64,000 nucleotides of DNA from an uncultured Methanosarcinales archaeon (lineage in GTDB: Archaea; Nanobdellota; Nanobdellia; Woesearchaeales; CAXGTL01), in the NCBI GenBank assembly GCA_964535955.1, contig CAZHVK010000001.1, forward strand, positions 115,542-179,541, read 5' to 3'. Every line of letters starts with the position of its first letter. The first letter of the stretch is position 1. Under the pieces are notes generated by a model. The model had not been told where the DNA came from, did no database searches, and saw nothing but the letters and a program-made list of their open reading frames with translations. Position numbers and translations under genes: made by a program. Below, piece by piece: positions 23,496 to 54,842 of this stretch.

Positions 23496-25397
23496 TTAAA
23501 TAACTTTTATTCTTCTTATCTTAACTCTTTGATCAGTTCCTGTTGAGATAATTATCCTCATTTCATATGTTCCTGGCATTGTTTTTTCAGGTATTTTAAG
23601 GACAACTTCTTTTGTTAACATGTCGTCATCATCTATTTCAAATGGACCCATTTCTTCTACAAACCCTAATTTTGGTGCTATAATGTGAAGAACTGCTTGA
23701 TCAATGTCTTTTGCTCTTTCTTTTGCAAAATTAACTGAAACATCTACTTTGTCTCCAGGTTTGAAATAAACTTGATTATCATTAGTCTTTATTCTACCTA
23801 CAAATAAATCTCTTTTAGCTGAATCAACAGCAGTGATTGTTACTGTATCTGAAGAAGTTAATTCTCCATCTGAAACTGTTAATTTAAAGACATATTCTCC
23901 TGTTCTTTCTGGTGTAAAAGATGCACGAGCTTGGTCAACATTGTTCATAGTCACTGTTTCTGGACCATCTTCAAATGTCCATTCATAAGTTAACATTGGA
24001 TCAAAAGGATTTGGATCGTATGAACCTGTACCATCTAATTTAAACAATACATCAACTACAGCTTCTTTATCATTTCCTGCATCTGCTACAGGTCTTGTGT
24101 TAATTGCATCCTCACCTGTAACTACAACATTAAACTCAGCCACACCTGCTAAACCTTGGTCATCAAAAGCAACTATTTGCAAAAGATGTGTGCCTGCTTT
24201 TGTGTAATAATGAGATTTATCAAAGTTGTATGATGCTGAGTTAGGAGTAAATTCTTCTGATTCACCATCTCCATAATAAATTATAACTGCCTCAATTAAT
24301 GTATCATCTGTAACTTGACCATTAAATGAAACTTCTAAAGGAGCATCTCCTTCTAAAGGACCTGCTGTTGCAGTAACTTCTGGTCTTTGATTATCTGGAT
24401 CAATTGAAACTAGAAAGTTTGTTACATAAACAACTGCGCCTTCTTGATCAGGTGCATATTCAAATCTTTCTGTTTTACCATTATTAATAACTTCACATTC
24501 CCAATGTTTTACTGCTGCATTATAATTACAAGTAGTATCAAATTGATTATTATGTTCATTTTGTCCTGATAAAGTACATGTACTTTTTTCTATATCACAG
24601 ACATTTAAATTTCCATCTAAAAAGAAATAATCTTTGTCTTTGTGATAACCTTCTGCTGAATGTTCAACTGCATAAGCCCTATTAGCATTAACTACAAAGT
24701 TTGCATTAGGTGTTCCTGTCTTAACAATACCACCTAAATCAACTGTTACTGGTTTTATGAATGCTTCTGTATTATAATCTTTTGCAGATGTTTTAACAGT
24801 GAATTGTGTTATAGCAGGAACTGATGTTTGTGCATCATCTGTTGGTTCTTGTGTATCTTCTTCTGTTTGGTCATCTGTTTGTTCGTCTGTTTGTTCGTCT
24901 GTTTCTTCTCCTGTTAAAGGTACTAAGAAATTTGTTACATAAACAACTGCGCCTTGGTCAGGTGCATATTCAAATCTTTCTGTTTTATCATTATTAACAA
25001 CTTTGCATTCCCAATGTTTTACTGCTGCATTGTAATTGCAAGAAGTAACATAATTATGATTATGATCATCATTACCTGTTAATGAACAAGTTGCTTGTTG
25101 TATATCACAAGTATCAAGATCACTGTCTAAAAAGAAATAATCTTTGTCTGATTTATAATTATCTGCTGAGTGTGTGACTGCATAAGCTCTGTCAGCACTA
25201 ACAGCGAAATTTGCATTAGGATTTCCTACTGCTTTAATTCCACCTAAATCAATATCACACGGTTTAATGAATTGTTCTGTGTTATAGTCTTTTGCAGATG
25301 TTTTAACAGTAAAAGTTGAGTATGCTGCTAATGCACCTGAAGCAATGACTATTGAAATCACAAGAAACATAAAAATCATATATTTTAGTTTTGCCAT
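23496..25397 (-). CDS. Secreted protein with two tandem copies of a novel domain of about 140 aa, separated by an acidic T/E/D/Q linker, followed by two PKD-like domains
   Basis: Signal peptide present. An internal duplication runs FTVKTSAKDYNTE.FIKP...NYNAAVKHWEC.V.NN.KTERFEYAPDQ...VVYVTNFLV. PKD motifs include WTFEDG...GEYVFKLTVSDG. The start at 25397 has a GAGAGGT SD upstream. Confidence 0.55.
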   Translation of the reverse strand: MAKLKYMIFMFLVISIVIASGALAAYSTFTVKTSAKDYNTEQFIKPCDIDLGGIKAVGNPNANFAVSADRAYAVTHSADNYKSDKDYFFLDSDLDTCDIQQATCSLTGNDDHNHNYVTSCNYNAAVKHWECKVVNNDKTERFEYAPDQGAVVYVTNFLVPLTGEETDEQTDEQTDDQTEEDTQEPTDDAQTSVPAITQFTVKTSAKDYNTEAFIKPVTVDLGGIVKTGTPNANFVVNANRAYAVEHSAEGYHKDKDYFFLDGNLNVCDIEKSTCTLSGQNEHNNQFDTTCNYNAAVKHWECEVINNGKTERFEYAPDQEGAVVYVTNFLVSIDPDNQRPEVTATAGPLEGDAPLEVSFNGQVTDDTLIEAVIIYYGDGESEEFTPNSASYNFDKSHYYTKAGTHLLQIVAFDDQGLAGVAEFNVVVTGEDAINTRPVADAGNDKEAVVDVLFKLDGTGSYDPNPFDPMLTYEWTFEDGPETVTMNNVDQARASFTPERTGEYVFKLTVSDGELTSSDTVTITAVDSAKRDLFVGRIKTNDNQVYFKPGDKVDVSVNFAKERAKDIDQAVLHIIAPKLGFVEEMGPFEIDDDDMLTKEVVLKIPEKTMPGTYEMRIIISTGTDQRVKIRRIKVI

Positions 25398-25566
25398 TTT
25401 TATATTACCTCTCATAGTTTTTCATTATATTAATTTATGATTGTAAATTGTGTTGATTTTTGTTGTTTTATTTAAATTTTATGTTATTGCTTTTATTCTT
25501 TGTTGTTCTGTTGTTGCTATATTATAATAATACTATTATATTAAATAAATCAAAAAAATAAAAAAA

Positions 25567-26283
25567 TTAAAATGGATACTTTAAGTCTCCATCTCCTTTA
25601 CCTGAATCTGAACCAAAATCTGGTACTGTTGCAGGTGTTGTTGTTCCTGGGTCATTATCCTTATCAAAGAATATTTTATAAATACCCCAAGCACCTAGGA
25701 CTCCTACTCCTATTTTTTCTCCATCTGACAAATTATCCCAAAATGAACCTTTCTTGTCTGGTCCTGGAGTACTTGTTGAAGCAGATGAACCACTTGTACC
25801 ATAGCCCATTGTTTTTATTAATAAACCCATTTCTGTGTAAAGGTCATCTTGAAAATCTTCACCGATTTCAAAAGTATATGAAAACATTCCTGGAGCATTA
25901 GTTTTTTTATCATCTTCTAAACATGAAACATTGATTTCTTCACCATCATATTCAAAGTTTCTTGATCTTAGAATTTTCTTTTTCATTTTAGCAAAATCTG
26001 TTAATTTCAAACCTAAATAATGAGGTATTCTTGCTCCTTGTGCATTTGTTACAAATGTTCTATATTTAGCATTAGACATTAATCCAACAATTCCTTGAAG
26101 AACTTTTTCTTCTTTGTCTTCTATTTCTCTTGTTTGGTTTTCAACCTTAATAGATCCATTTTCTGCTGCTTTTGCTGGTGTTATATAACCAAGCATAGGA
26201 GCTACTAACATTGATAATGCTAGACCATAACCTAATATTGTATTTTTTATTCCTTTTGTATATTCCATATATTTCCCCTCCAC
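25567..26283 (-). CDS. Secreted hypothetical protein with a Gly/Ser/Thr-rich C-terminal tail
   Basis: N-terminal signal peptide (LGYGLALSMLVAPMLGYITPAKAA). No recognisable domain. Confidence 0.45.
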   Translation of the reverse strand: MEGKYMEYTKGIKNTILGYGLALSMLVAPMLGYITPAKAAENGSIKVENQTREIEDKEEKVLQGIVGLMSNAKYRTFVTNAQGARIPHYLGLKLTDFAKMKKKILRSRNFEYDGEEINVSCLEDDKKTNAPGMFSYTFEIGEDFQDDLYTEMGLLIKTMGYGTSGSSASTSTPGPDKKGSFWDNLSDGEKIGVGVLGAWGIYKIFFDKDNDPGTTTPATVPDFGSDSGKGDGDLKYPF

Positions 26284-26557
26284 ATAAATTACTATTTCAA
26301 TATACTATATTCTCTATCTCAAATCTCTTTTTAATAACTCCCCCTTCTTTTATAAAATTAGCATGAACATATTTTGATATATGCTGAAACGTGCTATTTA
26401 GGAAGTAAATCAAATGTAATATATAAAGCTTTCGGTATGTTAGTATGCAAGAGTAGTTAATATGTGGTTAAATTTTATTACTGAAATCATGTAACACTAT
26501 GAAAATATGCCATTTAAATGTGATTTAAAGCAGCTTAAAAAGCCATTTTAAAGCCAT

Positions 26558-28873
26558 TTAAAGAGCTATTGAAGACCTTTTATTAGATGAAGGCTTTGTG
26601 AAATCAATATGAACTACTTTTTCTTGTGAAGATAAGATTAATTTTTCTAATGAGGTTTTGTAATGATCTAATAATCTAATTCCATGTTCACGAGGATTTT
26701 CTTTATAGTCATCAAGAATAATTGAATATAAATCTGATAATGATTCATAATCCTTATCTTTATTGTTTGAAAAGAATAATATTTTTGATAAAAATCTTCT
26801 AAAGATGTTTGTAAATGGTAATTCTGAAAATGTTCTTTCTACTTCTTTTGGATCAATCTGTTTTTTTACTTCAAGGTATAATTCTCTTAAAACATCAGAG
26901 TCTATTTGTTTATTTAATTCAAAAAATAATCCTTTGAATTCATCTTGATCTGTTGTTTTTAATAATTCTGCGAATTTATCTGAACCAAGAACTCTGTTCA
27001 TTGCAATGATTTGTTCGTCTGTTTGTTTTATTCTTTTTTTTGCTTCATCTATCATTTCTTGTTTTGTTTGTTCATCATCTAAATTATTGTTTGAAGAATT
27101 TGTTTGATTTTTTTTTGATTTAAACACATTAAAGATTTTATTAAAAAATTTTGATTCTTCTCTATTTTCAACAAGGTCTTTTAAATTTGTTAAATATGTC
27201 TGTTTTTGTTTAAACAAATTATTTATTATTGGAAGAGCTTTATGCCAATAAGAAGATGAAATTTTTGACAATCTTCTAATTTCTTCACAGTATTCAATTT
27301 CCCCAAGATCAAAAGCTGAAAATCCTAATTTTGTTTTAATGTGTTCAATAGTAGAAACTCTATCTTCTTCACAATCAGGTTTATATTTTTCTTCAACCCT
27401 TCCACTCATGATAAGAAACTTAGGATCAAATTTATTTCTTAATTTGAGTATGGTATTTATCATTGTTCTTCCTTTTATTGATTTTTCTAAATAAGACATC
27501 AAACTAAGATTGACTATATTATTGGAATATTTATAAGCAATTTCACCATCTTGTTTTATTATATTAACTAAATTTGATTTAAAATCTTGATATTTTTTTT
27601 CAGGGTCATTTTGTGTAGTTATCAAGGCATAATTATTCTCTTCATAATAGGCATTACTATTACTATTATTATTGGTTTCAATTACTGATTTAAGATAAAT
27701 AATTATCTTTGAAAGAAGTTGAGAGGAATAATTTCTATTTTGTATTACTTTAGATAATTTAGTCATATTGTCTTTATGAAATTCTTCTAGCAAAAATCTG
27801 ATAAGGAATGGCGATTCCTCATAAGTTTGTTCTTTTTCATGCAATCTAAATATATTTTTTACTATCAAATTCTTTTTATCAAAATCTCCTAAATACTTTT
27901 TGATGATTTTAGTAGAAAAACCTAGTTCGAGTAAAGCTTCAATCTTTTCAGAATTATCATAATCCACTGATTTAACAGTATTCATTGTCTGATCAAAAAA
28001 TTCCTTTGAAACTGCTTTTGTTTTTTTTAATAATATCTCATCTAGTGATGAAATTTCTAACTCAGCACTTAGATTTTCATTCTCAGAAACCTTATTATAA
28101 TGGTGAACAAAAAAATCTGTTAATGATTGAGCATTGTTTATCATTAAATAAGATTTAATCTCTGAAATCATAAATAATTGAATTAAGGTTTTTATTGAAT
28201 CTTTTTCTTTATCAAAAAGAGATTTATCTTTATGTAGAAAATAACAATAATTATCCTTCAAAGGTTCTTTTTTTGCAAGTTCCTCAAGTGTTGATCTTTG
28301 ATTGTCTTTGTAATTTTTAATGTCAAAAACAGATGAACAATATTTATTATAATGTTTCTTATGTGTTCCCATAATAGAAGTTATTGTTTTATCTTTTCTG
28401 TCTGCAAAAACAAAGTATAAATCAGCAAAAATATCTGTACTTGGTGGCAAACCACCTTGAAAAGTTAGTAAAAAAGTAATGTTTTTATTTTTTCTTTCTC
28501 TAGCTGTATATTCTATTTCTTTTTGCATAATACTTTCTAATTTTTCTGAATTGCCCATCCTAATTGTCTTTGCACCTGCAATATATTCTATTTTAGGTTC
28601 TGCATTAGGATTGTCTAAATCAAGATGTGCTAAATCAACATCAATTGAAACAAAATAAGGAAGAAGTTCTTTTCTTACATTACATCCTGCATCTTTAAAA
28701 TCAGGATTATTTAGACAATAATTATAACAATCAGAAGTTATTGTCCTAACAGTGTTTTCTGCTGTAACTGTTTTTCCTTTATCACCATCACCAGCAATAA
28801 TAACAGTTGTAACTTTAACATCATTAGAATTAATATAATCAGTATTTGTTTGTGATGATGCATAGTCTAACAT
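26558..28873 (-). CDS. Large (771 aa) hypothetical protein with a putative N-terminal P-loop (GDGDKGKT)
   Basis: VTTVIIAGDGDKGKTV fits beta-strand plus Walker A GxxxxGKT. A possible Walker B follows at FVSIDVD. The rest is alpha-rich with no recognisable family. Confidence 0.4.
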   Translation of the reverse strand: MLDYASSQTNTDYINSNDVKVTTVIIAGDGDKGKTVTAENTVRTITSDCYNYCLNNPDFKDAGCNVRKELLPYFVSIDVDLAHLDLDNPNAEPKIEYIAGAKTIRMGNSEKLESIMQKEIEYTARERKNKNITFLLTFQGGLPPSTDIFADLYFVFADRKDKTITSIMGTHKKHYNKYCSSVFDIKNYKDNQRSTLEELAKKEPLKDNYCYFLHKDKSLFDKEKDSIKTLIQLFMISEIKSYLMINNAQSLTDFFVHHYNKVSENENLSAELEISSLDEILLKKTKAVSKEFFDQTMNTVKSVDYDNSEKIEALLELGFSTKIIKKYLGDFDKKNLIVKNIFRLHEKEQTYEESPFLIRFLLEEFHKDNMTKLSKVIQNRNYSSQLLSKIIIYLKSVIETNNNSNSNAYYEENNYALITTQNDPEKKYQDFKSNLVNIIKQDGEIAYKYSNNIVNLSLMSYLEKSIKGRTMINTILKLRNKFDPKFLIMSGRVEEKYKPDCEEDRVSTIEHIKTKLGFSAFDLGEIEYCEEIRRLSKISSSYWHKALPIINNLFKQKQTYLTNLKDLVENREESKFFNKIFNVFKSKKNQTNSSNNNLDDEQTKQEMIDEAKKRIKQTDEQIIAMNRVLGSDKFAELLKTTDQDEFKGLFFELNKQIDSDVLRELYLEVKKQIDPKEVERTFSELPFTNIFRRFLSKILFFSNNKDKDYESLSDLYSIILDDYKENPREHGIRLLDHYKTSLEKLILSSQEKVVHIDFTKPSSNKRSSIAL

Positions 28874-28973
28874 TTTTTTTTGACATTTTTTGTAATTTTT
28901 AGTTATTGTTTTTGTTTATTTGTTAATCAAAAATAAATTATAAAAAAAATAATAAAATAATAAAATAAAAAAA

Positions 28974-30956
28974 TTACTCCATAATGCTTTCTTCTAAAGC
29001 TTTGTAAGCTTCTTCACATTCATTGATTAATTCTTTGTTGTCTGCTTTTTTCTGTTCTAGTTCAGTGCTTACTTGTTGTAGTTCTACTGTTGTTTCTCCA
29101 AGTTCTGTTTCTACTTCCTCTGTTCTTTTTTCAAGTTCTTGTAAACTAATCTTTCCTTGGTCATACAATCTTCTATTTTTGTCTCTTTCTTTTCTTAATG
29201 TAGTTGTTTGTTTTTCAAGTGTTTGTTTTGCTCCTTGGAGTTCGCCTACATTTGCTGCTAATTGTTTTTCTTGTTCTTTTAGTGCATCTATGTCAGTTTG
29301 TAAAACATCAATTTTTTCTTCTTGTGTTTTCTGAATACCTTCAACTCCAGTTCCAACTTTAGTAACAGCAGTACCAACACCTGCAACCTTAGTACCTACA
29401 CCCTCAACCTTAGTACCTACACCAGAAACTGCAGTAGAAACTTTTCCTGTTTCTGTTGTTACAGTTGTTACAACTTTTTCTTGAACATTTTTTTGTCCTT
29501 GTGCTAGTTCTGTTTTTGTTTTTCCTAATGAACTTAAGAAACTAGGACCATAGATTATACCAGCAGTCAATAGTACTCCTGATAGAACCAAACCTGCTCT
29601 TCCAAAATACTTAACAATTGTGCTATTTTCTTTAACTTCTCCAACAACTTTTTCCTCAGAATCAATAACTTGTTCTTTTGTTTCTTCTTCCTGGACAGAA
29701 ACTTCACCAAGTACATTTACTAATCCACCAAGATCTTCTAAACCATTAAGTCTAGCTTGTTTGAATTCTTTTTCTCTTTGTTTGCCTTGTTTTTCTTTTT
29801 TTACTTGTTCTGTTTCTTCTTGTCCATCATATTCTAATAAATTTTGATTAAGTGCAGTTATCTGTTCAATTAATAATTGCTTTTTTTGGACATAATTCAT
29901 ATTAATTGTAGCTAATCTTCCAAACCTATCTTCTAAAACTTCTAAATTCTGATGTGTTCTTATCTTGTGTTTATCTTGTTCAAAATATTCAACTCCATCT
30001 TTACTTGTACTGTTTTGTGGAAGATTTTTTGCGATTAGCTTTAATCTGTCATCAAACTTATATTTTGATGTTTTAAATGCATCAATCATGTGTTTGATTG
30101 GATCTTTTTTAATCTCCTTAACCATTTTCTTTGTTATCTCTTGGCCAGGATTCAAGATCTCTGCAACAGACATTACTAATGCTTCTGCTTTTTCTGGGTT
30201 ATCCTTTTTAAGTTCTTTGAATTTATCTTCAAGTCTTTGTGTTTCATCTGTTTTAAATCCATCATAAACCTTAACATATGTTTTATTAAGATTGTCTTCA
30301 TATAATCCAGAGAAATCTGTTCGAAGATCATCAATTGTTTTATCTCTTTCCATTATATCAACAAGACCTGGCTTATTCATTGGATCTTTTTCATCACCAA
30401 GATAAACAGTTAGATCACTTGCTAATTTGCTTAATCCTTTGTCTTTATATAATTGTGCATAATCACTTACTAGATCATTAACACCTTCTGTATATCCATT
30501 TTCTTTTCTATAAAGAAGTAATGATACTGCTGTTCTTAATCCTGTTTCATCTTTTCCAATGCCTTTAAATTTACTCGCTAAGAATTTAAGTGCTTTATAC
30601 CAAGGATCTGTTTTAAGTGTTTTTAATATTGTTTCATTATCAGCACTTTCACAAAGTTTTTTTCTTTTTTCCATGTCTATAAAATTTTCTTCTGGAAAAT
30701 ATTGCATGCTAATTGCATTTGCAACTTGTTTTTGAATAACTTCATCAACATTTGCATCTTTGTACAAAGCTTTTGCAAATAATTCATTGAATCTGATTCT
30801 GTCGTATGGTTCTCTTTCTGGTGTGCCCAAACCTTGTGCTACTTTTCTTTGTGTATCTTTATCTGTGTTTTTTAATATTTTTAAAATTTTGTCTGCTTCA
30901 CTAGAAGCATATTTTGTTTTCTTCTTTCCTAATCCTAACATATTAATCCCTCCCAC
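28974..30956 (-). CDS. Membrane-anchored coiled-coil protein with N-terminal annexin-like repeat(s), a (VGTKV)-type G/V/T repeat and a C-terminal coiled coil
   Basis: KGIGKDETGLRTAVSLLLYRKEN...DYAQLYKDKGLSKLASDLTVYLGDE matches the annexin repeat pattern (KGxGTDE..L..IL..R ... Y..lY...L...I..e..Gd). GLGTPE is also present near the N-terminus. A TM helix is VLSGVLLTAGIIY. A heptad-rich tail follows. Confidence 0.45.
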   Translation of the reverse strand: MGGINMLGLGKKKTKYASSEADKILKILKNTDKDTQRKVAQGLGTPEREPYDRIRFNELFAKALYKDANVDEVIQKQVANAISMQYFPEENFIDMEKRKKLCESADNETILKTLKTDPWYKALKFLASKFKGIGKDETGLRTAVSLLLYRKENGYTEGVNDLVSDYAQLYKDKGLSKLASDLTVYLGDEKDPMNKPGLVDIMERDKTIDDLRTDFSGLYEDNLNKTYVKVYDGFKTDETQRLEDKFKELKKDNPEKAEALVMSVAEILNPGQEITKKMVKEIKKDPIKHMIDAFKTSKYKFDDRLKLIAKNLPQNSTSKDGVEYFEQDKHKIRTHQNLEVLEDRFGRLATINMNYVQKKQLLIEQITALNQNLLEYDGQEETEQVKKEKQGKQREKEFKQARLNGLEDLGGLVNVLGEVSVQEEETKEQVIDSEEKVVGEVKENSTIVKYFGRAGLVLSGVLLTAGIIYGPSFLSSLGKTKTELAQGQKNVQEKVVTTVTTETGKVSTAVSGVGTKVEGVGTKVAGVGTAVTKVGTGVEGIQKTQEEKIDVLQTDIDALKEQEKQLAANVGELQGAKQTLEKQTTTLRKERDKNRRLYDQGKISLQELEKRTEEVETELGETTVELQQVSTELEQKKADNKELINECEEAYKALEESIME

Positions 30957-31206
30957 TATAATTATTTATTATTTATTCAGTCTTTAGACTAAACCTAAAT
31001 ATTGTCTAACACCTATTTTGTAGAATACTAATATTACAATATCATATGGGAATATGTACTAGTTTATAAATATTTCTATATTCACTACTGGCCAATAAAG
31101 ATAAAAATCTTGAAATATAGGCAAATTTATAAATATAACATACACATACTATATAGTATAGGTATTAATTAGATGTTTGGAATAAATATATGTAGGGGTT
31201 GAGTTA

Positions 31207-31343
31207 AAGGAGGAAGACAAAAATGATGCCAGGAATGAATATAAACAAACTTTTACAAAGTTTGATCAAAGGTAGTGAGGCATTACGCTTTGCTTCAGCC
31301 ACACAAGGAGGAAGACAAAAATGATGCCAGGAATGAATATAAA
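31207..31343. repeat. Direct duplication of a 39-nt translation-initiation segment (AAGGAGGAAGACAAAAATGATGCCAGGAATGAATATAAA) at 31207-31245 and 31305-31343
   Basis: The two 39-nt copies are exactly identical and lie 98 nt apart. Confidence 0.9.
31223..31324 (+). CDS. Putative 33-codon upstream ORF (MMPGMNINKLLQSLIKGSEALRFASATQGGRQK). It shares its first 7 codons with NAC, and its TGA stop overlaps the NAC ATG (ATGA)
   Basis: Created by the duplicated SD-plus-start segment. It has the same strong SD (AAGGAGG) as the downstream gene. Confidence 0.3.
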   Translation: MMPGMNINKLLQSLIKGSEALRFASATQGGRQK

Positions 31344-31710: not shown

Positions 31711-32226
31711 ATGGAACAACATAATTTGTCAAAAGAAGAAGCAAAAAAGTATCTTAAGTCTGCTGATAGAATCTTGTTTACTACTTATCCCTTGGTTAAT
31801 GATCCTAAGTTACTACTAAAAGTTATGGATAATATCTTTTTAGGCATTACAAAAACAATTGCTGCATTGCTTTATTATGAAAAGATGAAAAATAGAGTTC
31901 CAGAATTCAAAGATACTTTTGACTCAAAAATGGATATATTCAGAAGAAAATGTCTGCTGCACTATAACTTAGATCCAAATTATGTTAAATTTATTTTGGA
32001 TGTGAAAGGAATAATAGTACAACATAGGAAAAGTCCTGTCGAATTTGTTAAAAATGATAAATTTGTCATATGTTCGAATGATTATAACATGAAGTCAATT
32101 AGTTATGAAGATGTGAAAATCTTCTTAAAAAAAGCAAAAGTTTTTTATGGTAGAATAGAAAATATATTATTAAAAGACAAAAAAACAATAAAAAAGAGTA
32201 TTATTAGAGGTATGCAATATGATTGA
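31711..32226 (+). CDS. Hypothetical protein
   Basis: ORF with coding-like composition. No recognisable motif. Confidence 0.35.
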   Translation: MEQHNLSKEEAKKYLKSADRILFTTYPLVNDPKLLLKVMDNIFLGITKTIAALLYYEKMKNRVPEFKDTFDSKMDIFRRKCLLHYNLDPNYVKFILDVKGIIVQHRKSPVEFVKNDKFVICSNDYNMKSISYEDVKIFLKKAKVFYGRIENILLKDKKTIKKSIIRGMQYD

Positions 32227-32713
32227 ATCATTTTCAGATGCAAATGAAGAACTAAAAAGAGTAGATCACATGATCTTTGTTAGTTTAAAATATACAAGGA
32301 CCATGGATGTAATTGTTAATATAATAAGGAGAATGATTAATTGTACCGATTCTTTGATTTCTCTTTATCTTAAATATGCAGAAGAAAATAATATGTTAGA
32401 TGAAAAGATTCCTAAAAATAAAGCATTAAAAGCTGAGTTATTGAAAAATACTTTTTCTCAAGATAAAAAAATAATAGAAATGACTGATTTTTATATGTGG
32501 CTAAGAAAAATATTAAGGGCTAAACATGATAAAGTTAAAGAGTTTAAAAGGCATGTGGCTTTAGTGACTCAAATCAAACACAATAATCAAATAGAAGAAA
32601 TACAAATAGGTATAGACCAATTAGAAGAATTATATATCACAAAATTAAAACAATATATGAAAATGGCAAGTGAGTTGATAAAAAATGGTTCAAAAAAAGA
32701 GGAAAAAAAATAA
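32219..32713 (+). CDS. Hypothetical protein (alpha-helical, K-rich C-terminus)
   Basis: The ORF overlaps the upstream gene by 8 nt, which is an operon-like arrangement. Confidence 0.35.
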   Translation: MIESFSDANEELKRVDHMIFVSLKYTRTMDVIVNIIRRMINCTDSLISLYLKYAEENNMLDEKIPKNKALKAELLKNTFSQDKKIIEMTDFYMWLRKILRAKHDKVKEFKRHVALVTQIKHNNQIEEIQIGIDQLEELYITKLKQYMKMASELIKNGSKKEEKK

Positions 32714-33224
32714 ATCAAAAAAAATAAGAACAAAGAAAAAGGCTAAAAAAATAAAAACAAAGATAGTAAAGATGAATAAACCTTTTAAAGTCAAAAGTGA
32801 TTTTAAAGTAAAACTTAAGACAACACCATTAAAACAATATAAACAACAAGCAAATAAAGTAACTTACTGGTGTGCTCTTGTTGTAATAACTACATGTAAT
32901 TTGTTAGCAGCAATGTTCTTGGTTCCATTCTTGATGTTATTATCACAATGGCCTATGTATATCTTAGTTGTATCTATTGCATTGGTGTTTGGTTTGTTGT
33001 TTAATCTGATAATAAGAGATATTGATATTGAAAAGAGTCACCATGTGTTAGCTGTTGTATTTATTCCAATAGTTACAATTATTAATTTGTTTTTGATGAC
33101 AGTCATTGCTAATAAGATGGATATTGTTTTGAGTTTGGGTATTAGACATAATCCATTTGTGATAAGTTTATTGTATGCAGTAGTGTTTTTATTGCCTTAT
33201 GCATGGAGTATGAGGAAAAAGTAG
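32685..33224 (+). CDS. Hypothetical small membrane protein (K-rich N-terminus followed by about 4 TM helices)
   Basis: Hydrophobic segments such as VTYWCALVVITTCNLLAAMFLVPFLMLL. The true start may be internal (MNKPFKV). Confidence 0.35.
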   Translation: MVQKKRKKNKSKKIRTKKKAKKIKTKIVKMNKPFKVKSDFKVKLKTTPLKQYKQQANKVTYWCALVVITTCNLLAAMFLVPFLMLLSQWPMYILVVSIALVFGLLFNLIIRDIDIEKSHHVLAVVFIPIVTIINLFLMTVIANKMDIVLSLGIRHNPFVISLLYAVVFLLPYAWSMRKK

Positions 33225-47419: not shown

Positions 47420-48109
47420 ATGGTAAAAAAACTTGAAGAAGTATTGTGTTGGGATGATTTTAAAGAGATTAATAGAAAATTAAATAATTTTTCTAGATTT
47501 GATCTTAGTAATTTCTGTGTTCATCTTCTTGTCACCTATGGTAAACATCGTTCTGTTGAACTTGAGACAAAGAAAACACTTGATAATGAATTTGCAGAAT
47601 CATTTGAAGGTTCAAGAAATGGAAATAAAAATTATCAGATCCTTAATAATGGAGATAGAACTAAAGTTCTTAGAAGAGCATTTCAGATGAGAAATGAACA
47701 TATATCAAAAAATAGATACTTTTTATCAAAAATATATGGAGATGTTGGATGGGTATATGCTGCTGGAAACTGGCTTTTAGCATATGGTGATGATTTTTAT
47801 AAAGATGTAGAAGATGGTCTAAAATCTAAAGGAATTATATTTAGGTTTATAGGAAATGAAAAATCTATTTTTTTAGAATGTTATAATGGTTCTAAGAAAA
47901 GAGATTATTGTGAAATTACAACTCATAATTGTTTAGATCCTGAAGAAATTCTTGCTGAAAAAGATATTATTGTTGAAAATTTTAAAAAACCTGAATTTTT
48001 TCCTTTTTGTGAAAAAATAAGACATTTATTTGAAAACTATGAAAAAATGCATTGTATTATGTTAAAAGGTAAATCTAAACCCTTAACTCAAGATTGTCAT
48101 TATTCTTGA
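47420..48109 (+). CDS. Hypothetical protein
   Basis: ORF with coding-like composition. No recognisable domain. Confidence 0.35.
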   Translation: MVKKLEEVLCWDDFKEINRKLNNFSRFDLSNFCVHLLVTYGKHRSVELETKKTLDNEFAESFEGSRNGNKNYQILNNGDRTKVLRRAFQMRNEHISKNRYFLSKIYGDVGWVYAAGNWLLAYGDDFYKDVEDGLKSKGIIFRFIGNEKSIFLECYNGSKKRDYCEITTHNCLDPEEILAEKDIIVENFKKPEFFPFCEKIRHLFENYEKMHCIMLKGKSKPLTQDCHYS

Positions 48110-50006
48110 TTGCTTGTGAAATTATTTTACCAGGCTCTGAATTCCTTTTTAATCTTATTATTCCTTTTTTATTGACTTTTACTGATAAAACATATTCATC
48201 ATCAACATAAACATCAATGTTTTCATTAGAAAAATCAGAATCTATTTTTAAAACTAAGTTTCTTTTGGCAAATCTTGGTTCAAAATCTATTACTTGTTTA
48301 TTATTCTTATTTTCTTTTCTCTTTTTCCCAGCAAGTTCTTGTATATCTATGCTAAGTCCTAATGATCTTTCTAATTTTTCAATATTTTTTCCATCTTTGC
48401 CAATTATTCTTGCAATATTTTTTTTAGGTATAAAAATCTGGCACCTATTTTGGTTTATTAGTTCAACTTCTGCATCATCTACATATGCTAAGATATATCT
48501 TTTTATTGAATCTTCAACTAACCTTGTCACACCTGATTTTTGTTTTTGTTCTTGAACAGGTATAACCATTGTGTGTTCACCATATGAATATATCTCGAAT
48601 TCTAGTTTGCCTGTTTCAAAATCATTAACAACAACTACTGGTCTTGCAAGATCAGCTTCTGTCATACCTGACGGTACTTTGACAGTCATCTTAAGGTTTA
48701 GTACTTTTTCTACTTGACCATTTTTTATGAACACTACTGTATCAACTACTTGAGGAATAACACCCATTTCTATTCTGCCAATGAATCTTTGAATTGCATC
48801 AATTGGATTTGTTGCATGAACAACACCCACCATGCCAACACCTGCTAATCTCATGTCTGTAAATAATGCAAAATCCTTTGTATTACGCATCTCATCAAAC
48901 ATTGTGTAATCTGGTCTTGAGAGGAGAAGTATGTCATGTATTTCTTCTGATGTTCCTCTTGTTATGGAATATTGAGTTATTGAATCTGAAAGCATTAAGT
49001 CTCTAGGTGCTTCAACTGTTTTTACTATTTTGTCTTTTGATGCAAAATATTCTGCTAATGCTTGTGTAAATGTTGATTTTCCCATTCCTGGTGATCCTGC
49101 TATCAACATACCTTCTGCTTGTTTTGCAATTCTTTGTTTTAATTTTTCACTTAGTTTGTAATCTTTTAATTCTAGTTTTTTTACTGGCCGAACTGCAGTG
49201 ATTTCCCATGAATCTGAAAATGAAGGTTTTGTGATAACTATTCTATAATTAGCTAACTGTACTATTGTTGAACCTTTTCTTGAAATCTCTATAAAACCAT
49301 CTTTTCTCATGCCTGTCTGTTCAACAATTTCATTTGCTATTTCTTTAACTTGGTCTCTATCTAGTACTGTTTTGTCTGCTATTAGAAATTCCCAATTACC
49401 TGGCATACCTTTTTTTGCATATGTTGGCAGGTTTTCCCTTATATGAATACTCATTGTTGTTTTGTCAAAATATTTTTCTAGTATGATTGGTTTTTCTGTT
49501 TTTTCAAATTCTATGAATATTGTGTTAATTCCTTTTGATTGTGCTACTTTGCTCTGGACTTTATCAGCTGTGATCAATGTAGCTTTTTCTTCAAATGCTA
49601 AGCTTCTGATCATTGCATCTATTTCACCTGACTTTGCTCTGCTGATTGCAAACTCCTGCGGTCTTTTGCCTTTATATATTATCTTAAATTTGTGTTTTGT
49701 TGATAGTTTTCTTAGTTTGCTTATCTCTTCAAGCCCTAAATAACCTGTTTCTCTGTTCTGGTTTGCTTGGTGTTCAAGTTCTGCTAGCACTGCTTCGTGA
49801 AATATTAGGTTTGTTATCTTTATCTTTTTGTTTTTTAGTTTTTTTGAGAGAATTCCTTCTATTATGACCGAAGTATCTGGAACTAGTTTGTTTATGATTA
49901 GTTTTTTAGTTTTAGTTTGTTTTGTGTTCTGGTTTTTTTGTTTTGATTTTGTTTTTTTCATTTTATCTTTATTTTCTTGTTTTGATTTTGTTTTTTCATT
50001 TTTCAA
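48075..50006 (-). CDS. PIN-domain P-loop ATPase with a C-terminal KH domain (PilT/PhoH-like archaeal family), K-rich N-terminus
   Basis: PIN domain (LVPDTSVIIEG...E..). Walker A is LIAGSPGMGKST. KH motif is RIIGKDGKNIEKLERSLGLSI. Confidence 0.7.
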   Translation of the reverse strand: MKNEKTKSKQENKDKMKKTKSKQKNQNTKQTKTKKLIINKLVPDTSVIIEGILSKKLKNKKIKITNLIFHEAVLAELEHQANQNRETGYLGLEEISKLRKLSTKHKFKIIYKGKRPQEFAISRAKSGEIDAMIRSLAFEEKATLITADKVQSKVAQSKGINTIFIEFEKTEKPIILEKYFDKTTMSIHIRENLPTYAKKGMPGNWEFLIADKTVLDRDQVKEIANEIVEQTGMRKDGFIEISRKGSTIVQLANYRIVITKPSFSDSWEITAVRPVKKLELKDYKLSEKLKQRIAKQAEGMLIAGSPGMGKSTFTQALAEYFASKDKIVKTVEAPRDLMLSDSITQYSITRGTSEEIHDILLLSRPDYTMFDEMRNTKDFALFTDMRLAGVGMVGVVHATNPIDAIQRFIGRIEMGVIPQVVDTVVFIKNGQVEKVLNLKMTVKVPSGMTEADLARPVVVVNDFETGKLEFEIYSYGEHTMVIPVQEQKQKSGVTRLVEDSIKRYILAYVDDAEVELINQNRCQIFIPKKNIARIIGKDGKNIEKLERSLGLSIDIQELAGKKRKENKNNKQVIDFEPRFAKRNLVLKIDSDFSNENIDVYVDDEYVLSVKVNKKGIIRLKRNSEPGKIISQAIKNNDNLELRV

Positions 50007-52018
50007 TACAACCTCAACAAATGCACAAAGAACAACTTAAACTTGCCCCAACCTGTCACATTTTCTAGATTAATAGTGATTTGTTCCTGAGTTTTATAAA
50101 CATTGCCTTTATCATCTTTGTATTCGACAATGATGTTGATTATGTTTTCTTCTGCACTTAGTTCTTTTGCTAAGATGTTATTAAAATTCATATTTATATC
50201 TGTTTTTGCTATGTTTATCTGTGTTTCACGTTCTAGATGTTTTCCTTTGATGAAAATATTAACATCTTCTGGGTCTGAAAATGACATCTTTTTCACCGAG
50301 ACCCCGATGTTGAATACATCATCAATGTTTGCTGTTGTGGGGTGTTCAATGTTAGTGATTTCTAATTGAGGTTTGTCTAATAAAATATATTTTATATCTT
50401 GTTTTTTGAAAACATCATTATTTCTTAATGTTATTGTTAATTCTTTATTACCTGGTTTTTTGTTTTCATTATTAAGTATGAATTCTTCTGTGTGTTCTTG
50501 TGTAATGCCTAGGTCAAAGGTTTTACAATCTTTTTCTAGGCAAAGGTTTAAGTTTTTCAGAATTGTGTTACCTATGTTTTTTATTTTACAACTTGCTTTT
50601 GCTGTTTGATCATTATAAAATTTATCTTTTTCCAATTCACAAAGTAATTCTACATTTGTTGAATATGTTTTTTGTTTTTCCTCTTCAAATTCATCTACTA
50701 TTTCTTGTATTTTTGATTTAGTGAAAACAGGATCGTCTTCTGTTGATTCAAAATATGTTGAAGAACTGCTACCACTTGTTGTAATTACTGTTATTGGATA
50801 TTTATAGATTGTTCTTGCTTTTATTGTTTTTGGGGTTTTCATTACAAAACCGATTGTTTTTTGTTCATATGGTTTGAGAATGACTGTTTTTCTATCATTA
50901 TCAACTTCAAGTTCTTTTGGTCTTGAGATTAATAATTCTGTTGCAACATAATATTTTTTTCTATTCTTAATATTAACTCTCACAAGGTTGTATGAGTCAG
51001 GACCAATATTTTCTTTTTCAGGTAAAGCATCCATATAAAAAAGATTAAGATGATTTTCTTCTATATTTTCAATATCTGTTTCTATATTCAGTTTTGTTGT
51101 CTCAATATCCAAGCCATAAGATAACCATGAATAAGAAACAGATGATTTGTTAGTATTAACAGAATCTCCTAATTTAATATGAGATGGATCAATATAACCA
51201 AATTGGCCATAAGTTACATCAAATGGTACCCAACCATATTCAGGGAAATAAACTTCTGCCCATGCATGAGATACAAAATCTTCATACTGAGGAAGATTAG
51301 AATAAGCAACACCATATGAATATTTTGCAGGAATGTTTAATGACCTTAACATTGAGAGAAATAAGGTAGTTAGTTCATCACACACACCTCTTTTATTTTT
51401 TAACACCCATAAAGCATCTTGTGTTCCTTCTGCAGTTAGTGTGTCAAGATCATAATTGATGTTGTCTTTTATCCAGTCTGCAATCTTAACAGAAACAATG
51501 TATAAATCATCTTCACCTTCAATTATTTCTGATGCTTTTTGTATTATCAACTTGTTATCTGATTTAATTGTTTGTGTTGGCTGTAAATACATATGAACTT
51601 CTTTTTGTATATCATCCTGGTCCAATGGAAAATCTATTTTCTTTGTTATTTGTTTTATTTGATTACTTGTTCTTATTTTTGCTTTTATATAAAAATCAAG
51701 CTCTTTTTCTTTAGTATCTTTCCAAGTAAAAGCCATACTATCAGCAGATTCTTTACCATTAGAAGGTATATCAGAACTAATTATTAGTTGCTGAAAACTT
51801 TCATAAGGTTTTAGTTTTAATATAGCATTTAACTCTGAAACTTTGTGGTTTTCTTTTTCAGGAATAATGTTTATTGATGAATAAATATATAAGTTAGAGG
51901 TAATAATTGAGTTCTCAAAGTCATATGCTTCTGCTTCTTCTTCTGCTGTAACTGATAAGGCTAAAGCTAATAGAATTATTAAAATAAATAAAAGTAATGA
52001 TTTTTTAAATTTTATCAT
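50003..52018 (-). CDS. Secreted transglutaminase-like (Cys-His-Asp) domain protein
   Basis: Signal peptide present. Core residues are GVCDELTTLF (Cys), HAWAEVYFPEYGW (His) and VPFDVTYG (Asp). Confidence 0.7.
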   Translation of the reverse strand: MIKFKKSLLLFILIILLALALSVTAEEEAEAYDFENSIITSNLYIYSSINIIPEKENHKVSELNAILKLKPYESFQQLIISSDIPSNGKESADSMAFTWKDTKEKELDFYIKAKIRTSNQIKQITKKIDFPLDQDDIQKEVHMYLQPTQTIKSDNKLIIQKASEIIEGEDDLYIVSVKIADWIKDNINYDLDTLTAEGTQDALWVLKNKRGVCDELTTLFLSMLRSLNIPAKYSYGVAYSNLPQYEDFVSHAWAEVYFPEYGWVPFDVTYGQFGYIDPSHIKLGDSVNTNKSSVSYSWLSYGLDIETTKLNIETDIENIEENHLNLFYMDALPEKENIGPDSYNLVRVNIKNRKKYYVATELLISRPKELEVDNDRKTVILKPYEQKTIGFVMKTPKTIKARTIYKYPITVITTSGSSSSTYFESTEDDPVFTKSKIQEIVDEFEEEKQKTYSTNVELLCELEKDKFYNDQTAKASCKIKNIGNTILKNLNLCLEKDCKTFDLGITQEHTEEFILNNENKKPGNKELTITLRNNDVFKKQDIKYILLDKPQLEITNIEHPTTANIDDVFNIGVSVKKMSFSDPEDVNIFIKGKHLERETQINIAKTDINMNFNNILAKELSAEENIINIIVEYKDDKGNVYKTQEQITINLENVTGWGKFKLFFVHLLRLY

Positions 52019-52020: not shown

Positions 52021-53853
52021 TTAACCCTTTTTAAATAATAGTTTATCTTTTTGTTTGTCTTCCTTTATCTTGCTTCTTTTTAAAAGCTTCTTTTGCTGTA
52101 GAAGTATTAATTTAGTTAAAAACTTTTTGGAAATTAATTTTTGTAAAACTATTATTAAGACCAATAAGATAATTACATAAATAGAAATATAATATAATTG
52201 GCTCAATACTGGTTGAATTCCATACTTTAATCCTATCTTTAAAAAATTAGCACTCAATATCAAAGGAGAATATCTTATTATATTTCTTATTGCTTCAGGC
52301 ATCATACCAATAGGAATTATTATATCTGATAAAAATAAGAATATCGTGCTGATTGAAACTGCAGCAATTGCAGATGTTTCTTCTGTTTTAAACATTTGTC
52401 CAATAATAATCCCTATAAAAGAAAATAAAGAGATTATCAAAATAATATAAGGTAGCATCTTTAAAGTAGGAATAATTATTTGAATATTAAATAATATAGA
52501 TGAAATAATTACAATAACAAAGATCTGTAATAATACAATAAGAAGGCATGTTAAGTAATAACCCAATAAAAATATAATATCATCAACAGGAGTAATCTTG
52601 TTTCTGAAAAAAGCAGGGCTTTTCTTTTCCATCATGACTAAACTAGTGGAAAGAAGAATGCTAATAAACATAATAATTATCACTAAAAGATTTGGAAATA
52701 ATCCTTCTAAATAAGTGATCTCACTTTCAACCCCTCTGATGTCTGTTTTTATAGGACTTACGATCTTGTCTGCATCTGTTATCTGGATGCTTCCTATATT
52801 TTCATCTATTTTTTTAAAAGATTTATCTATTTCATTGATGTTTTCATTTACAGAATTTATTTTTTCTTTAATTTTATCTAGTTTGTCAGTAATTTTGCTT
52901 CTTGATGAAGCAACATCATTTATCTTATTTTTTGTTTTTTCAATGTTTAGATTGATATCTTTTATAAGTAACTTTAGTTCTGTGATTTTTTTGTCTGTAT
53001 TTGTTTGTTGATCTTCTATTAATGTATTTGCTTCATTGACTTTTGATTGAGTAGTATTTATTAGATCTTTTATGTCTGAAATTGATGCTGAATTTTCTTC
53101 TGATTCTAATGATTCTACATCTGATTCTATATCTTCTAGATGAGATGATATATCTACAAAATATGCTCCTGCTTTTTCTATTTCATTATTTTGTTTTTCT
53201 ATCTCATCTAATTTTGTGCTTGTTTCAGTTGTCTTAAAATCATTTGTGTTTATACTAATGTCCAAAGAATTAAGATCAATTTTTATTTGTTCTAGCTTAT
53301 CTGTGGAATCTTTGTTTAATTTTTTTATTTCAGATAACAAAGGTTTTTTATTGAATATTTCAACCCTTGTACTTTCAAGTTTTTGAAGAAGTGTATTTGT
53401 AAGATCCATTGAGATTTCTTTTGATTTCTCAGAAAATTTACTTGATAATGCTTCAATTATAATAAAGACCATATTAATTCTTGAATTATCAACATAAAAT
53501 GTTAAAGTATTGTTGCCAATACCTTTTTCTAAGTCAAGGTTTGGTGGAAAAATAACACAAGCATTTAGTTTGTTTATTTTTATCTTATTTATACAATCAA
53601 GTTCAGAAGATGTTTTTTCAACATTGTACTGTTTTTCACTTAATTTATCAGTAAAGATATTAACAGTATCTGTGTACTCTTCTGAATAAACACCAATGTT
53701 CAATGCCATTGAATTTGTATTGTTGAATGCAATGCCTAATAATAATATTAAGAATAATGGGCCAAGTATTATAATAAGTGATGAAAATTTAGATCTTAAA
53801 AGTAGTTTGAAGTTTTTTTGAATAATTTTGATGAGTGGAGTGATTTGTTTCAT
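52021..53853 (-). CDS. ABC-2-type transporter permease with a large extracytoplasmic coiled-coil domain (YhgE/Pip-like)
   Basis: N-terminal TM, a coiled-coil domain of about 300 aa, then 5 C-terminal TM helices. It is paired with the upstream ATPase. Confidence 0.7.
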   Translation of the reverse strand: MKQITPLIKIIQKNFKLLLRSKFSSLIIILGPLFLILLLGIAFNNTNSMALNIGVYSEEYTDTVNIFTDKLSEKQYNVEKTSSELDCINKIKINKLNACVIFPPNLDLEKGIGNNTLTFYVDNSRINMVFIIIEALSSKFSEKSKEISMDLTNTLLQKLESTRVEIFNKKPLLSEIKKLNKDSTDKLEQIKIDLNSLDISINTNDFKTTETSTKLDEIEKQNNEIEKAGAYFVDISSHLEDIESDVESLESEENSASISDIKDLINTTQSKVNEANTLIEDQQTNTDKKITELKLLIKDINLNIEKTKNKINDVASSRSKITDKLDKIKEKINSVNENINEIDKSFKKIDENIGSIQITDADKIVSPIKTDIRGVESEITYLEGLFPNLLVIIIMFISILLSTSLVMMEKKSPAFFRNKITPVDDIIFLLGYYLTCLLIVLLQIFVIVIISSILFNIQIIIPTLKMLPYIILIISLFSFIGIIIGQMFKTEETSAIAAVSISTIFLFLSDIIIPIGMMPEAIRNIIRYSPLILSANFLKIGLKYGIQPVLSQLYYISIYVIILLVLIIVLQKLISKKFLTKLILLQQKKLLKRSKIKEDKQKDKLLFKKG

Positions 53854-53858
53854 TTTGA

Positions 53859-53898
53859 TTTGTCAAAAACATCTGTTTTTGATCATGATCAAAATTCC
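53859..53898. promoter_or_regulatory. Conserved palindromic upstream element TTTGTCAAAAAC-N9-TTTTTGATCATGATCAAAA, copy 1, about 33 nt upstream of the permease start
   Basis: Perfect 12-bp palindrome TGATCATGATCA. An element matching at 32 of 34 positions lies upstream of dnaG. Confidence 0.5.
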
Positions 53899-53912
53899 AT
53901 TAGAAGTATTGG

Positions 53913-54842
53913 TTACTTCTTATGACATTTTGACATTTCTAAAGCTTTGAAAAGTGTTGTTAAATTTGCATGTTTGGATGGTAATGATTTTTTTATGTCT
54001 TTAACAGAAGCGCATTTTATGATCCTTCCATTCTTAATAATAGCAACCCTATCACAAATCTCTTCCATGTCGTCCAAGAAATGAGAAGCTATGATGACTG
54101 TAATCCCTTTTTTTTTAATCTTTAATATTAAACTAAGAATTTCCTCTCTTAAGATTGGGTCAAGATCTGCAGTTGGTTCATCAAGTATAATAAGTTCTGG
54201 TTTATGTATCAAAGCGCAAATTATACCTAAACGTTTCTGCATTCCAAATGAAAGTTCTTGTGCTAAAGTATGTTTACTTTGTTCTAATCTTGTTAATTTA
54301 AGTAATGCATTTGCATTTGCTAGTATAACAGAATGAGAAATATTATACAAAGAACCAAAATGTTCTAGATTTTCTAATGCTGTTAGTTTAGGATAAAAAC
54401 TTGGTTCTTGAGGGGCAAAACCTATTTTTTGCCGCATTAATGCTAAATCCTTGTTTGATTCAATCAGTTTATTTCCGTGATTATAATATATTTTCCCAAA
54501 ATCTGCATAATGAAAACCTATGATAAGATTTAGCAAAGTTGTTTTACCTGAACCAGACATACCGATTAATCCAAAGATTTCTTTTTTTTTAATGCTTAAG
54601 TTGATGTTCTTAAGAATTTCTTTGTTATGAAACTGTTTGTTTAGGTTTTGTATTTTGATTATTATGTTTTTGTCTGCTTTTGATGTTTGTTTTTTTAGTG
54701 TTGTTTTCTTTGTTTTGTTTTGTTTACGATTTCTTTTTGTTTCTTTTTTTGTTTTTTTAGTTTTTAATCTTTTGTGTTTTGTTTTAGACTTCTTTTTAGA
54801 ATTACTACTACTAAGATTCCTCTTTTTTCTTTTCTGTTTCAA
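53913..54842 (-). CDS. ABC transporter ATP-binding protein with a K/R-rich N-terminal extension
   Basis: Walker A is GMSGSGKTTLL, the signature is LSFGMQKRL, and Walker B is LIILDEPT. Confidence 0.85.
   Translation of the reverse strand: MKQKRKKRNLSSSNSKKKSKTKHKRLKTKKTKKETKRNRKQNKTKKTTLKKQTSKADKNIIIKIQNLNKQFHNKEILKNINLSIKKKEIFGLIGMSGSGKTTLLNLIIGFHYADFGKIYYNHGNKLIESNKDLALMRQKIGFAPQEPSFYPKLTALENLEHFGSLYNISHSVILANANALLKLTRLEQSKHTLAQELSFGMQKRLGIICALIHKPELIILDEPTADLDPILREEILSLILKIKKKGITVIIASHFLDDMEEICDRVAIIKNGRIIKCASVKDIKKSLPSKHANLTTLFKALEMSKCHKK

Follow-up and report, generated by a model that had tools for sequence, protein, structure and literature searches.

A fast-evolving gene pair in the envelope region of marine Woesearchaeota encodes a putative GvpD-like P-loop protein and a putative membrane partner

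The DNA described here is a 64,000-nt stretch (the window; G+C ~28%) from an uncultured archaeon of the Woesearchaeales (assembly GCA_964535955.1, contig CAZHVK010000001.1, positions 115,542 to 179,541), and the subject of this analysis is a pair of long adjacent genes within it, designated B and A in the order of their transcription and both lying on the minus strand. Gene B (28974..30941) encodes a 655-aa protein with a putative single membrane anchor, and gene A (26558..28873) a 771-aa protein with a Walker A motif near its N-terminus; A begins with ATG, as B probably does. The pair is conserved in distant marine relatives, evolves faster than all of its neighbors, and behaves there as part of a single replaceable block. 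As judged by sequence comparison, the closest relative found for A is GvpD, a regulatory rather than a cytoskeletal P-loop protein.

Stops fall at ~8% of codons in random frames at this G+C content (by arithmetic), so open reading frames of 655 and 771 codons cannot be chance occurrences, and the two adjacent, co-oriented genes reported in a first-pass annotation of this DNA are confirmed. That annotation placed A first, which is correct by coordinate and not by transcription, in which B precedes A. An alternative GTG start at 30956 would extend B to 660 aa (28974..30956), and the ATG at 30941 is probably the real start, as it is preceded 8 nt upstream by a GGGAGG Shine-Dalgarno sequence and independent ENA gene calls annotate B as a 655-aa protein. 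The two genes are separated by a 100-nt A/T-rich spacer (28874..28973, minus strand) with T-runs after the B stop codon and no clear Shine-Dalgarno sequence before A; among the known loci the spacer ranges from 58 to 100 nt and its sequence is not conserved. Downstream of the pair are genes for a small secreted or membrane protein, a PKD-domain protein and Ig-like membrane proteins, and upstream, in divergent orientation, are NAC and small conserved cytoplasmic and membrane proteins, so that the earlier placement of the pair between surface-protein genes holds for the downstream side only. The wider neighborhood is one of cell-envelope biogenesis, with STT3/AglB, glycosyltransferases, and PKD and Ig-like surface proteins. 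There are no gvp genes in the window, and no archaellum genes (ArlB, ArlI or ArlJ) nearby.

Searches of Pfam, NCBIfam, PADLOC, PHROG and PDB sequences gave no significant match for A and only coiled-coil noise for B, in agreement with the earlier impression that neither protein matches a known family; both are orphans in these databases. Relatives were sought in about 15 billion public proteins. A word-indexed search of 5.8 billion protein clusters, queried with A, B and the A-family alignment, returned the query itself only, and an exhaustive HMMER scan of 1.84 billion representatives found two full-length distant homologues of A, designated P0004 (809 aa, E 7e-10 to A) and P0005 (823 aa, E 3e-4). 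Both derive from TARA-ocean metagenomes, and one contig belongs to a Candidatus Woesearchaeota metagenome-assembled genome (MAG). Back-translated pattern scans of genome and metagenome collections recovered nothing with A alone, and only the TARA loci when the alignment was used. The window organism itself is present in several marine metagenomes and is essentially clonal; the MAG of sample SAMN10231904, which holds it, has been discussed among those from the water column of marine oxygen-minimum and oxygen-deficient zones (PMC12220078).

Each TARA homologue of A has a B homologue directly upstream, on the same strand and 58–62 nt away (BLASTP 1e-12 and 3e-21), and these B homologues share the layout of the window protein, in which a large helical domain precedes a single hydrophobic segment and a repeat or coiled-coil tail. 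The pairing noted in the first-pass annotation is therefore seen in three of the three known versions of the family (the window, the L007/L008 type and the L011 type). The surrounding gene order is also shared among the relatives, running NAC, B-A, PKD protein, geranylgeranyl reductase and STT3/AglB with other genes interspersed.

Protein A can be divided into an N-terminal domain (aa 1-205; 28259..28873, minus strand) with several conserved blocks, whose counterpart in P0004 resembles GvpD and FlaH, and a C-terminal region (aa 206-771; 26561..28258, minus strand) that is predicted to be all-helical, with conserved blocks TLIQLF, LRNKFDPKF and FSELPF; the helical prediction is secondary structure taken from a low-confidence model only. 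The C-terminal ~550 residues match no known family and contain nothing resembling GvpD, and a hydrophobicity scan revealed no transmembrane-like segment anywhere in A. The protein contains the peptide VIIAGDGDKGKTV, and its Walker A motif GDGDKGKT (aa 28-35; 28769..28792, minus strand) is an exact match to GxxxxGK[ST], preceded by the hydrophobic stretch VTTVIIA. From the composition of A (G 2.5%, K 11.7%, S+T 14%), the number of such motifs expected by chance in 771 aa is ~0.008 (arithmetic). In all six frames of the window the pattern occurs five times, always in a long open reading frame, and the other four instances belong to genuine P-loop proteins (RadB/Rad51, Cdc6/Orc1, an ABC ATPase and a PilT-like ATPase).

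The motif is also conserved in the family. The corresponding segments of the three members are GDGDKGKT, GDPKTGKS and GDNTVGKS, following VIIA, IILS and IISS respectively, and share the form GD-x3-GK[ST] at overall identities of 24–38%. G28, D29, G33 and K34 are invariant in all three members and position 35 is S or T, although only 104 of the 771 positions (13.5%) are invariant in the three-way alignment; both of the 8-residue windows that cover Walker A are among the 24 of 764 with four invariant positions. The Walker A motif thus appears credible and under selection on sequence grounds, as the first-pass annotation had supposed, and its remark that no recognizable GTPase or ABC signature follows downstream also stands, with no canonical one detectable in A. 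Other conserved blocks of the N-terminal domain, besides that at 23-37 containing Walker A, are D80/L84/D87, 135-155 (LLTFQGGLP...LYFVFAD) and 174-188 (HY...SSVFD).

Protein B begins with an alpha-helical domain (aa 1-444; 29610..30941, minus strand) that has no signal peptide, contains motifs including SD-x-x-x-YLG, has no family match in Pfam, NCBIfam or a PDB profile search, and is probably cytoplasmic. It is followed by a hydrophobic segment, YFGRAGLVLSGVLLTAGIIYGPSFL (aa 445-469; 29535..29609, minus strand), which is the putative single membrane anchor; its hydrophobicity is moderate (Kyte-Doolittle 1.6–1.8, versus 2.5–3.5 in neighboring membrane proteins), and a hydrophobic segment occupies the equivalent position in both B homologues. 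The C-terminal region (aa 470-655; 28977..29534, minus strand) contains short Gly/Val/Thr repeats of the GVGTKV type followed by a heptad coiled coil, and is replaced in the homologues by different short repeats with which it cannot be aligned.

The C-terminal coiled coil accounts for several spurious matches of B. Rod_CreS (crescentin/intermediate filament) reaches 18.8 bits, where the cut-off is 100, on a 118-residue stretch of coiled coil, LegC2C7 scores 29 bits against a cut-off of 350, and SMC and ASRP profiles score 20–23 bits against cut-offs of 300–729 (567–729 for SMC), in the C-terminal coiled coil only. B lacks a Walker A motif, and A has no match to SMC_N, AAA_23 or AAA_15 in Pfam or NCBIfam at E<=1, so the SMC-like character proposed earlier for the pair was not borne out. 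The description of B as annexin-like fared no better, with no match to Pfam PF00191 at E<=1, no annexin among the PDB matches to the profile of the B N-terminal domain, and an hhalign probability of 0.1% against a manually entered annexin A5 sequence.

The P-loop class to which A may belong was examined by profile and pairwise comparison. FlaH and GvpD are the sole P-loop matches of the A family in the PDB, Pfam and NCBIfam libraries: the A-family profile matches PDB FlaH (4yds) at E 0.017, Pfam GvpD_P-loop (PF07088) at E 0.005 (17.2 bits, cut-off 24, over only the first ~87 of 189 model positions), and NCBIfam FlaH at E 0.0064 (16 bits, cut-off 194). A profile of full-length A yielded only coiled-coil noise against the PDB, and a tblastn search of plasmids with the P0004 N-terminal domain a single weak helicase match. 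Real sequences of H. salinarum GvpD, three further GvpD proteins and E. coli RdcA/CrfC were used for direct comparison. BLASTP aligns P0004 with H. salinarum GvpD at 31% identity over 94 aa (pairwise E 3e-5), beginning at a QFFxG motif before beta1, continuing through the P-loop and ending at LDVDxxFxxLDLD. With hhalign, the A-family profile matches the four GvpD proteins with probabilities of 46–77% over 81–91 columns; against a GvpD alignment with match states taken from the first sequence the probability is 77%, with a score of 41.3 over 91 columns. No GvpD-like similarity is seen outside residues ~20-110 of A.

Any P-loop protein aligns at Walker A, and a shuffle control was therefore built in which beta1, Walker A and the 12 residues that follow (where helix 1 begins) were left in place and all other template columns were shuffled. 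For the GvpD alignment the null scores average 30.5 +/- 1.2 with a maximum of 36.5, and none of 240 shuffles reaches the observed 41.3 (z 8.7); a single GvpD sequence gives z 11. The same control applied to other P-loop proteins gives z 0.5 for an Fzo1 fragment (22 of 100 shuffles equal or exceed the observed score), -0.4 for E. coli RdcA, -0.4 for the RadB of the window and 0.35 for its Cdc6. The GvpD similarity is thus specific, and the resemblance to dynamins is confined to the Walker A block.

This bears directly on the earlier suggestion of dynamin-like machinery. In one specific form of that idea, A would be a very divergent large GTPase of the dynamin, mitofusin or bacterial dynamin-like protein (BDLP) type, active in membrane remodeling or fusion, and B would be the membrane adaptor, perhaps at bridges between DPANN and host cells. 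The overall architecture is appropriate, with an N-terminal P-loop and a long helical region in 770–820 aa, as is a P-loop that lacks the central Gly and has the GD-x3-GKS form of Fzo1 (GDVNTGKS). A phmmer comparison of the P0004 N-terminal domain with three constructs of yeast Fzo1 gives E 0.22–0.25 with G1 aligned and SSGLN opposite DSPGLN, and the invariant S-x-V-h-D block could be a degenerate G4. Only G1 is actually present, however: two of the three members lack the G3 Asp, the Thr of G2 is not kept across the family, and the supposed G4 reads T/S-V-L/F-D and lacks N/T-K. There is no match to Dynamin_N or a related Pfam or NCBIfam family at E<=10, the hhalign probability for RdcA/CrfC is 0.4%, no dynamin shuffle z exceeds 0.5, and what similarity there is beyond Walker A is explained by GvpD and not by dynamins. 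We consider a dynamin-like role most improbable.

The catalytic residues expected of a P-loop ATPase are less evident than Walker A. No counterpart of the GvpD Walker B strand (LTIAFDSW) was found, the equivalent strand of the A family reading, by eye, LPGG or FQGG. The sole hhhhD motif in window A (FVFAD, aa 150-154) retains D in P0004 and has K in P0005, and the invariant D80, D87 and D184 are alternative Walker B candidates. The position of the catalytic Glu after beta2 is E in P0004 and P0005, and L/N in window A. These features would suit a P-loop that is a relic, with A and B being purely structural helical envelope proteins (scaffold or cytoskeletal) that have no use for nucleotide: no conserved Walker B acid or catalytic Glu can be pointed to, both proteins are mostly helical or coiled coil, and window A has the least canonical post-P-loop helix and, taken alone, no GvpD similarity beyond Walker A. 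A neutral relic would nonetheless be expected to decay, yet all three members retain the G, G, K and S/T of the motif in a family with so few invariant positions, and the relative ArlH, which binds ATP without hydrolyzing it, is a functional switch (PMC8978795). A purely structural pair is accordingly a quite unlikely interpretation.

Comparison of the window with the TARA species reveals a strong contrast in the rates at which these genes diverge. Flanking proteins are 49–75% identical (NAC 74%, three small proteins 67–75%, a helix-turn-helix (HTH) protein 63%, surface proteins 49–61%, geranylgeranyl reductase 59%), whereas A and B are only 24–30% identical, and the pair evolves two to three times faster than all of its neighbors. 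At the DNA level, the window and the TARA locus L007 share no similarity across 24088 to 31318 apart from an 82-nt non-coding block immediately downstream of A; the variable block corresponds to positions 6750..12490 of L007 and to the whole of L011.

Two alleles of this region coexist in a single TARA sample (run ERR594346, assembly ERZ2773080). They include an additional gene, x, which lies between NAC and B in the TARA relatives (L007 6311..7774, 487 aa; L011 2..1246) and was not found in the window by tblastn. In its product a short N-terminus and one transmembrane segment are followed by a coiled-coil stalk and a C-terminal domain that contains Cys. Between the two alleles the proteins are 29% (x), 28% (B) and 38% (A) identical, and the x-B intergenic region is 93% identical. 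The short contigs that carry P0005 begin with 47–123 nt that are 100% identical to the middle of gene x on the P0004 contig; their last ~110 nt match the DNA immediately following the P0004 stop codon at 99% identity. Contigs of four independent assemblies are interrupted at these same allele boundaries, as expected for a branch in the assembly graph. The head of x, B and A thus behave as one replaceable block with sharp boundaries; only the head of x is exchanged along with B and A, as the allele breakpoint is at the junction of stalk and head. No second allele was seen in the population of the window organism, all of whose contigs are at least 99.8% identical to the window, and 90% clusters of the proteins flanking the pair in the window contain the same organism only.

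These breakpoints also argue against a view of A and B as functionally unlinked, fast-evolving orphans that remain neighbors through general synteny. The region from NAC to STT3 is wholly syntenic in the relatives, so that adjacency alone is weak evidence of a functional link, and the T-rich stretches after B could end transcription between the genes. However, the TARA breakpoints enclose exactly the x head, B and A, which are therefore inherited as one block; the order, strand and short spacing of the pair are constant; A and B share an exceptional rate relative to every flanking gene; and a conserved promoter is predicted upstream of B only. Chance neighbors are in our judgment a very unlikely explanation.

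A defense or inter-microbial conflict module, in which a membrane sensor or effector (B, with x in the relatives) is coupled to a cytoplasmic NTPase (A) and an arms race keeps the alleles apart, would account for the deep alleles, sharp recombination boundaries and near-identical flanks. It would also account for the high divergence of the cytoplasmic A, and not just of the putative surface parts; hypervariable modules with a putative role in conflict are documented in archaea, such as VARTIG of Thermococcales (PMC8416519). B has a faint match to a ZorA tail in PADLOC (E 0.0013), which is judged to be coiled-coil noise, and A has no PADLOC match even at E<=1. No nuclease, protease, toxin or other effector domain is present in A, B, x or the orphan gene downstream of A, the neighborhood is one of envelope biogenesis and not a defense island, and one architecture is retained in all alleles, as is typical of surface or recognition loci more than of the turnover of defense genes. 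We regard a defense function as unlikely.

Non-coding sequences at either end of the pair are better conserved than the genes themselves. The predicted B promoter and leader (30942..31076, minus strand) comprise a BRE/TATA-like element, AGAAATATTTATAAA, with its TATA at 31063..31070, and a leader of ~100 nt; they are conserved in three loci while the coding region is not, with the leader motif AAAATAGGTRT.AGAYA..ATTTAGRTT. The promoter reading is based on resemblance to the archaeal BRE/TATA consensus, and a scan for sigma-70 promoters and terminators was set aside as uninformative for an archaeon. The 82-nt block after A (26417..26498, minus strand) also contains a BRE/TATA-like element, CGAAAGCTTTATATA, at 26420..26434. 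It is single-copy, occurs after A in all loci that extend that far, is 83% identical to L007 although the flanking coding DNA cannot be aligned, is ~99% identical between the TARA haplotypes, and marks the right-hand edge of the variable cassette in them; it is probably a promoter or regulatory site of the next gene. Neither conserved block resembles a structured RNA, there being no Rfam match and fold z-scores of -1.2 to +1.2 relative to shuffles (-1.2 for the B leader).

That next gene (25567..26268, minus strand) is an orphan encoding 233 aa from its ATG, with an N-terminal hydrophobic segment and a Gly/Thr/Pro-rich tail. It lies within the stretch that varies between species, has no family match, and is not similar by BLASTP to the 264-aa product at the corresponding position in L007. 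Beyond it, the gene for the PKD-domain surface protein (23496..25415, minus strand) contains an internal duplication of ~390 nt (24409..24800 and 24922..25310, 80% identical), and good conservation between this protein and the TARA relative is limited to the C-terminal third (53% over 213 aa).

On the other side of the pair, a 39-nt direct repeat (31207..31245 and 31305..31343) provides a second copy of the beginning of the NAC gene, and a 33-codon open reading frame results upstream of NAC. Assembly L004 has a single copy of the repeat (a 98-nt deletion) and several assemblies break nearby; these breaks seem attributable to the repeat or an indel and not to variation of the cassette. Following NAC are three small genes (31711..33224, plus strand; 171, 164 and 179 aa, the last a membrane protein) that have no Pfam match, are 67–75% identical in the TARA relative, and are conserved and Woesearchaeota-specific. 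Farther away, a 643-aa protein (48075..50006, minus strand) combines PIN, PilT/T2SSE-type ATPase and KH domains and adjoins a transglutaminase-like protein (50003..52018) and an ABC-2 transporter pair (52021..54842).

We tentatively favor a reading, to which we would give somewhat less than an even chance, in which A and B form a lineage-restricted two-gene module of Woesearchaeota from marine oxygen-minimum zones, with A as an ATP switch and B as its membrane partner, within a diversifying envelope cassette. In such a module the N-terminal ~200 residues of A would form a very divergent P-loop domain of the KaiC/GvpD/FlaH type (RecA superfamily), followed by the helical region of ~550 residues. 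A would be cytoplasmic, and B anchored by one hydrophobic helix, with its 445-residue helical domain facing the cytoplasm and its repeat-rich coiled coil either beyond the membrane or running along it. B, probably together with A, would be expressed from a promoter and leader that stay constant as the coding sequences change. A would bind ATP through Walker A and act as a nucleotide-dependent switch rather than a motor; the family lacks an invariant acidic Walker B or catalytic residue. By analogy with GvpD and GvpE, and with ArlH and ArlX, A may dock on the cytoplasmic domain of B and control its assembly, conformation or turnover. Selection of a diversifying or balancing kind, acting within the cell-envelope region, is the most economical reading of the evolutionary pattern: the module is the fastest-evolving part of this region and is exchanged as a block, which suggests that B (and x in the relatives) may be exposed to diversifying pressure, for example from viruses or from partner or host cells, with A co-evolving.

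Several observations count against this reading of A as a switch acting on B. All of the library scores for FlaH and GvpD are below the family cut-offs, and the GvpD signal beyond Walker A comes mainly from P0004 (z 6.0), with window A and P0005 each aligning to GvpD only at Walker A when used alone; the assignment of window A therefore rests on its full-length homology to P0004. The alignment stops before the GvpD Walker B, no acidic Walker B candidate is clearly invariant in the A family, and the arginine-rich regions of GvpD (bR1 and bR2) have no visible counterpart in it. AlphaFold2 leaves the P-loop fold of A unconfirmed, with a mean pLDDT of 34.5 for full-length A and 38.1 for the P0004 N-terminal domain (3 sequences each). 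B is unrelated to GvpE or ArlX, and its topology is uncertain, the hydrophobic segment being weak. Co-transcription of B and A is put in some doubt by the T-runs after B, which could be terminators, and conservation of the pair represents one lineage and not three independent events, since the whole neighborhood is syntenic.

A stronger and more speculative proposal, which we think rather doubtful, is that the x head, B and A constitute a co-adapted DPANN recognition cassette, in which a surface coiled-coil and head module is wired to an intracellular ATP switch, with deep alleles maintained by balancing or negative frequency-dependent selection. Its roles could then include evasion of viruses at their receptor, recognition of a host or partner, or self/non-self discrimination, and it would amount to an undescribed archaeal envelope signaling or recognition system built on an orphan KaiC/GvpD-like branch. 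A life that depends on contact with other cells is presumed for DPANN archaea, next to nothing is known of the proteins that make and control their surface, and most of their genes are orphans; KaiC/GvpD/FlaH-type proteins have been proposed as signaling hubs in archaea. A module for surface recognition or control would thus be an entry point to virus-host or symbiont-host specificity in an uncultured lineage. Otherwise, the pair illustrates how far a P-loop protein can drift beyond the reach of standard annotation and structure prediction. The novel envelope or cytoskeletal system envisaged in the first-pass annotation is a possibility, and the nearest relative of A points to regulation rather than to a cytoskeleton.

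Of the known systems, the dynamin superfamily (BDLP, Fzo1 and RdcA/CrfC) resembles A in size, in having an N-terminal nucleotide-binding domain and a long helical region, and in the GD-x3-GKS flavor of its P-loop, but in controlled comparisons nothing is shared beyond Walker A and the G2, G3 and G4 motifs are not kept. ArlH/FlaH, the KaiC-like component of the archaellum motor, is the top or only P-loop match in the PDB and NCBIfam, and offers the same logic of an ATP switch on a scaffold with one transmembrane segment: it binds but does not hydrolyze ATP, undergoes autophosphorylation, and is seated on ArlX, a membrane scaffold of the single-pass type (PMC8978795). It differs in that ArlH has ~230 aa, compared with the 771 of A, the FlaH matches are sub-threshold, and the layout of B is opposite to that of ArlX, with a large N-terminal domain before the transmembrane segment.

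GvpD, a regulator of gas vesicles in haloarchaea that is placed in the COG of 'KaiC/GvpD/RAD55' RecA-superfamily ATPases, provides the closest parallel. It is a protein of ~530 aa that oligomerizes, and its P-loop is needed for the loss of GvpE, the leucine-zipper-like product of a neighboring gene (PMC4390858). In common with A it has an N-terminal P-loop domain, similar from before beta1 to the LDVD...LDLD region, and its gene adjoins that of a coiled-coil-type partner on which it acts in a P-loop-dependent manner. Unlike GvpD, the A family has no detectable FDSW Walker B or arginine-rich regions and includes ~550 aa of unrelated sequence, its partner, the putative membrane protein B, has no relationship to GvpE, and gas-vesicle genes are lacking nearby.

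At the level of the locus, the cassette recalls replacement-type envelope islands, exemplified by the Haloquadratum cell-wall island (PMC4535781) and by VARTIG (PMC8416519). All have a block of envelope-associated genes between conserved flanks where recombination takes place, and deeply divergent versions of the block within one population or genus. They are unrelated in gene content, and the cassette described here has a fixed architecture that includes a cytoplasmic P-loop protein and is so far known from only two species (three alleles). What is new, as far as can be judged from sequence, is a KaiC/GvpD-like P-loop protein that combines a novel architecture with a novel partner and is encoded within an apparent replacement-type envelope island.

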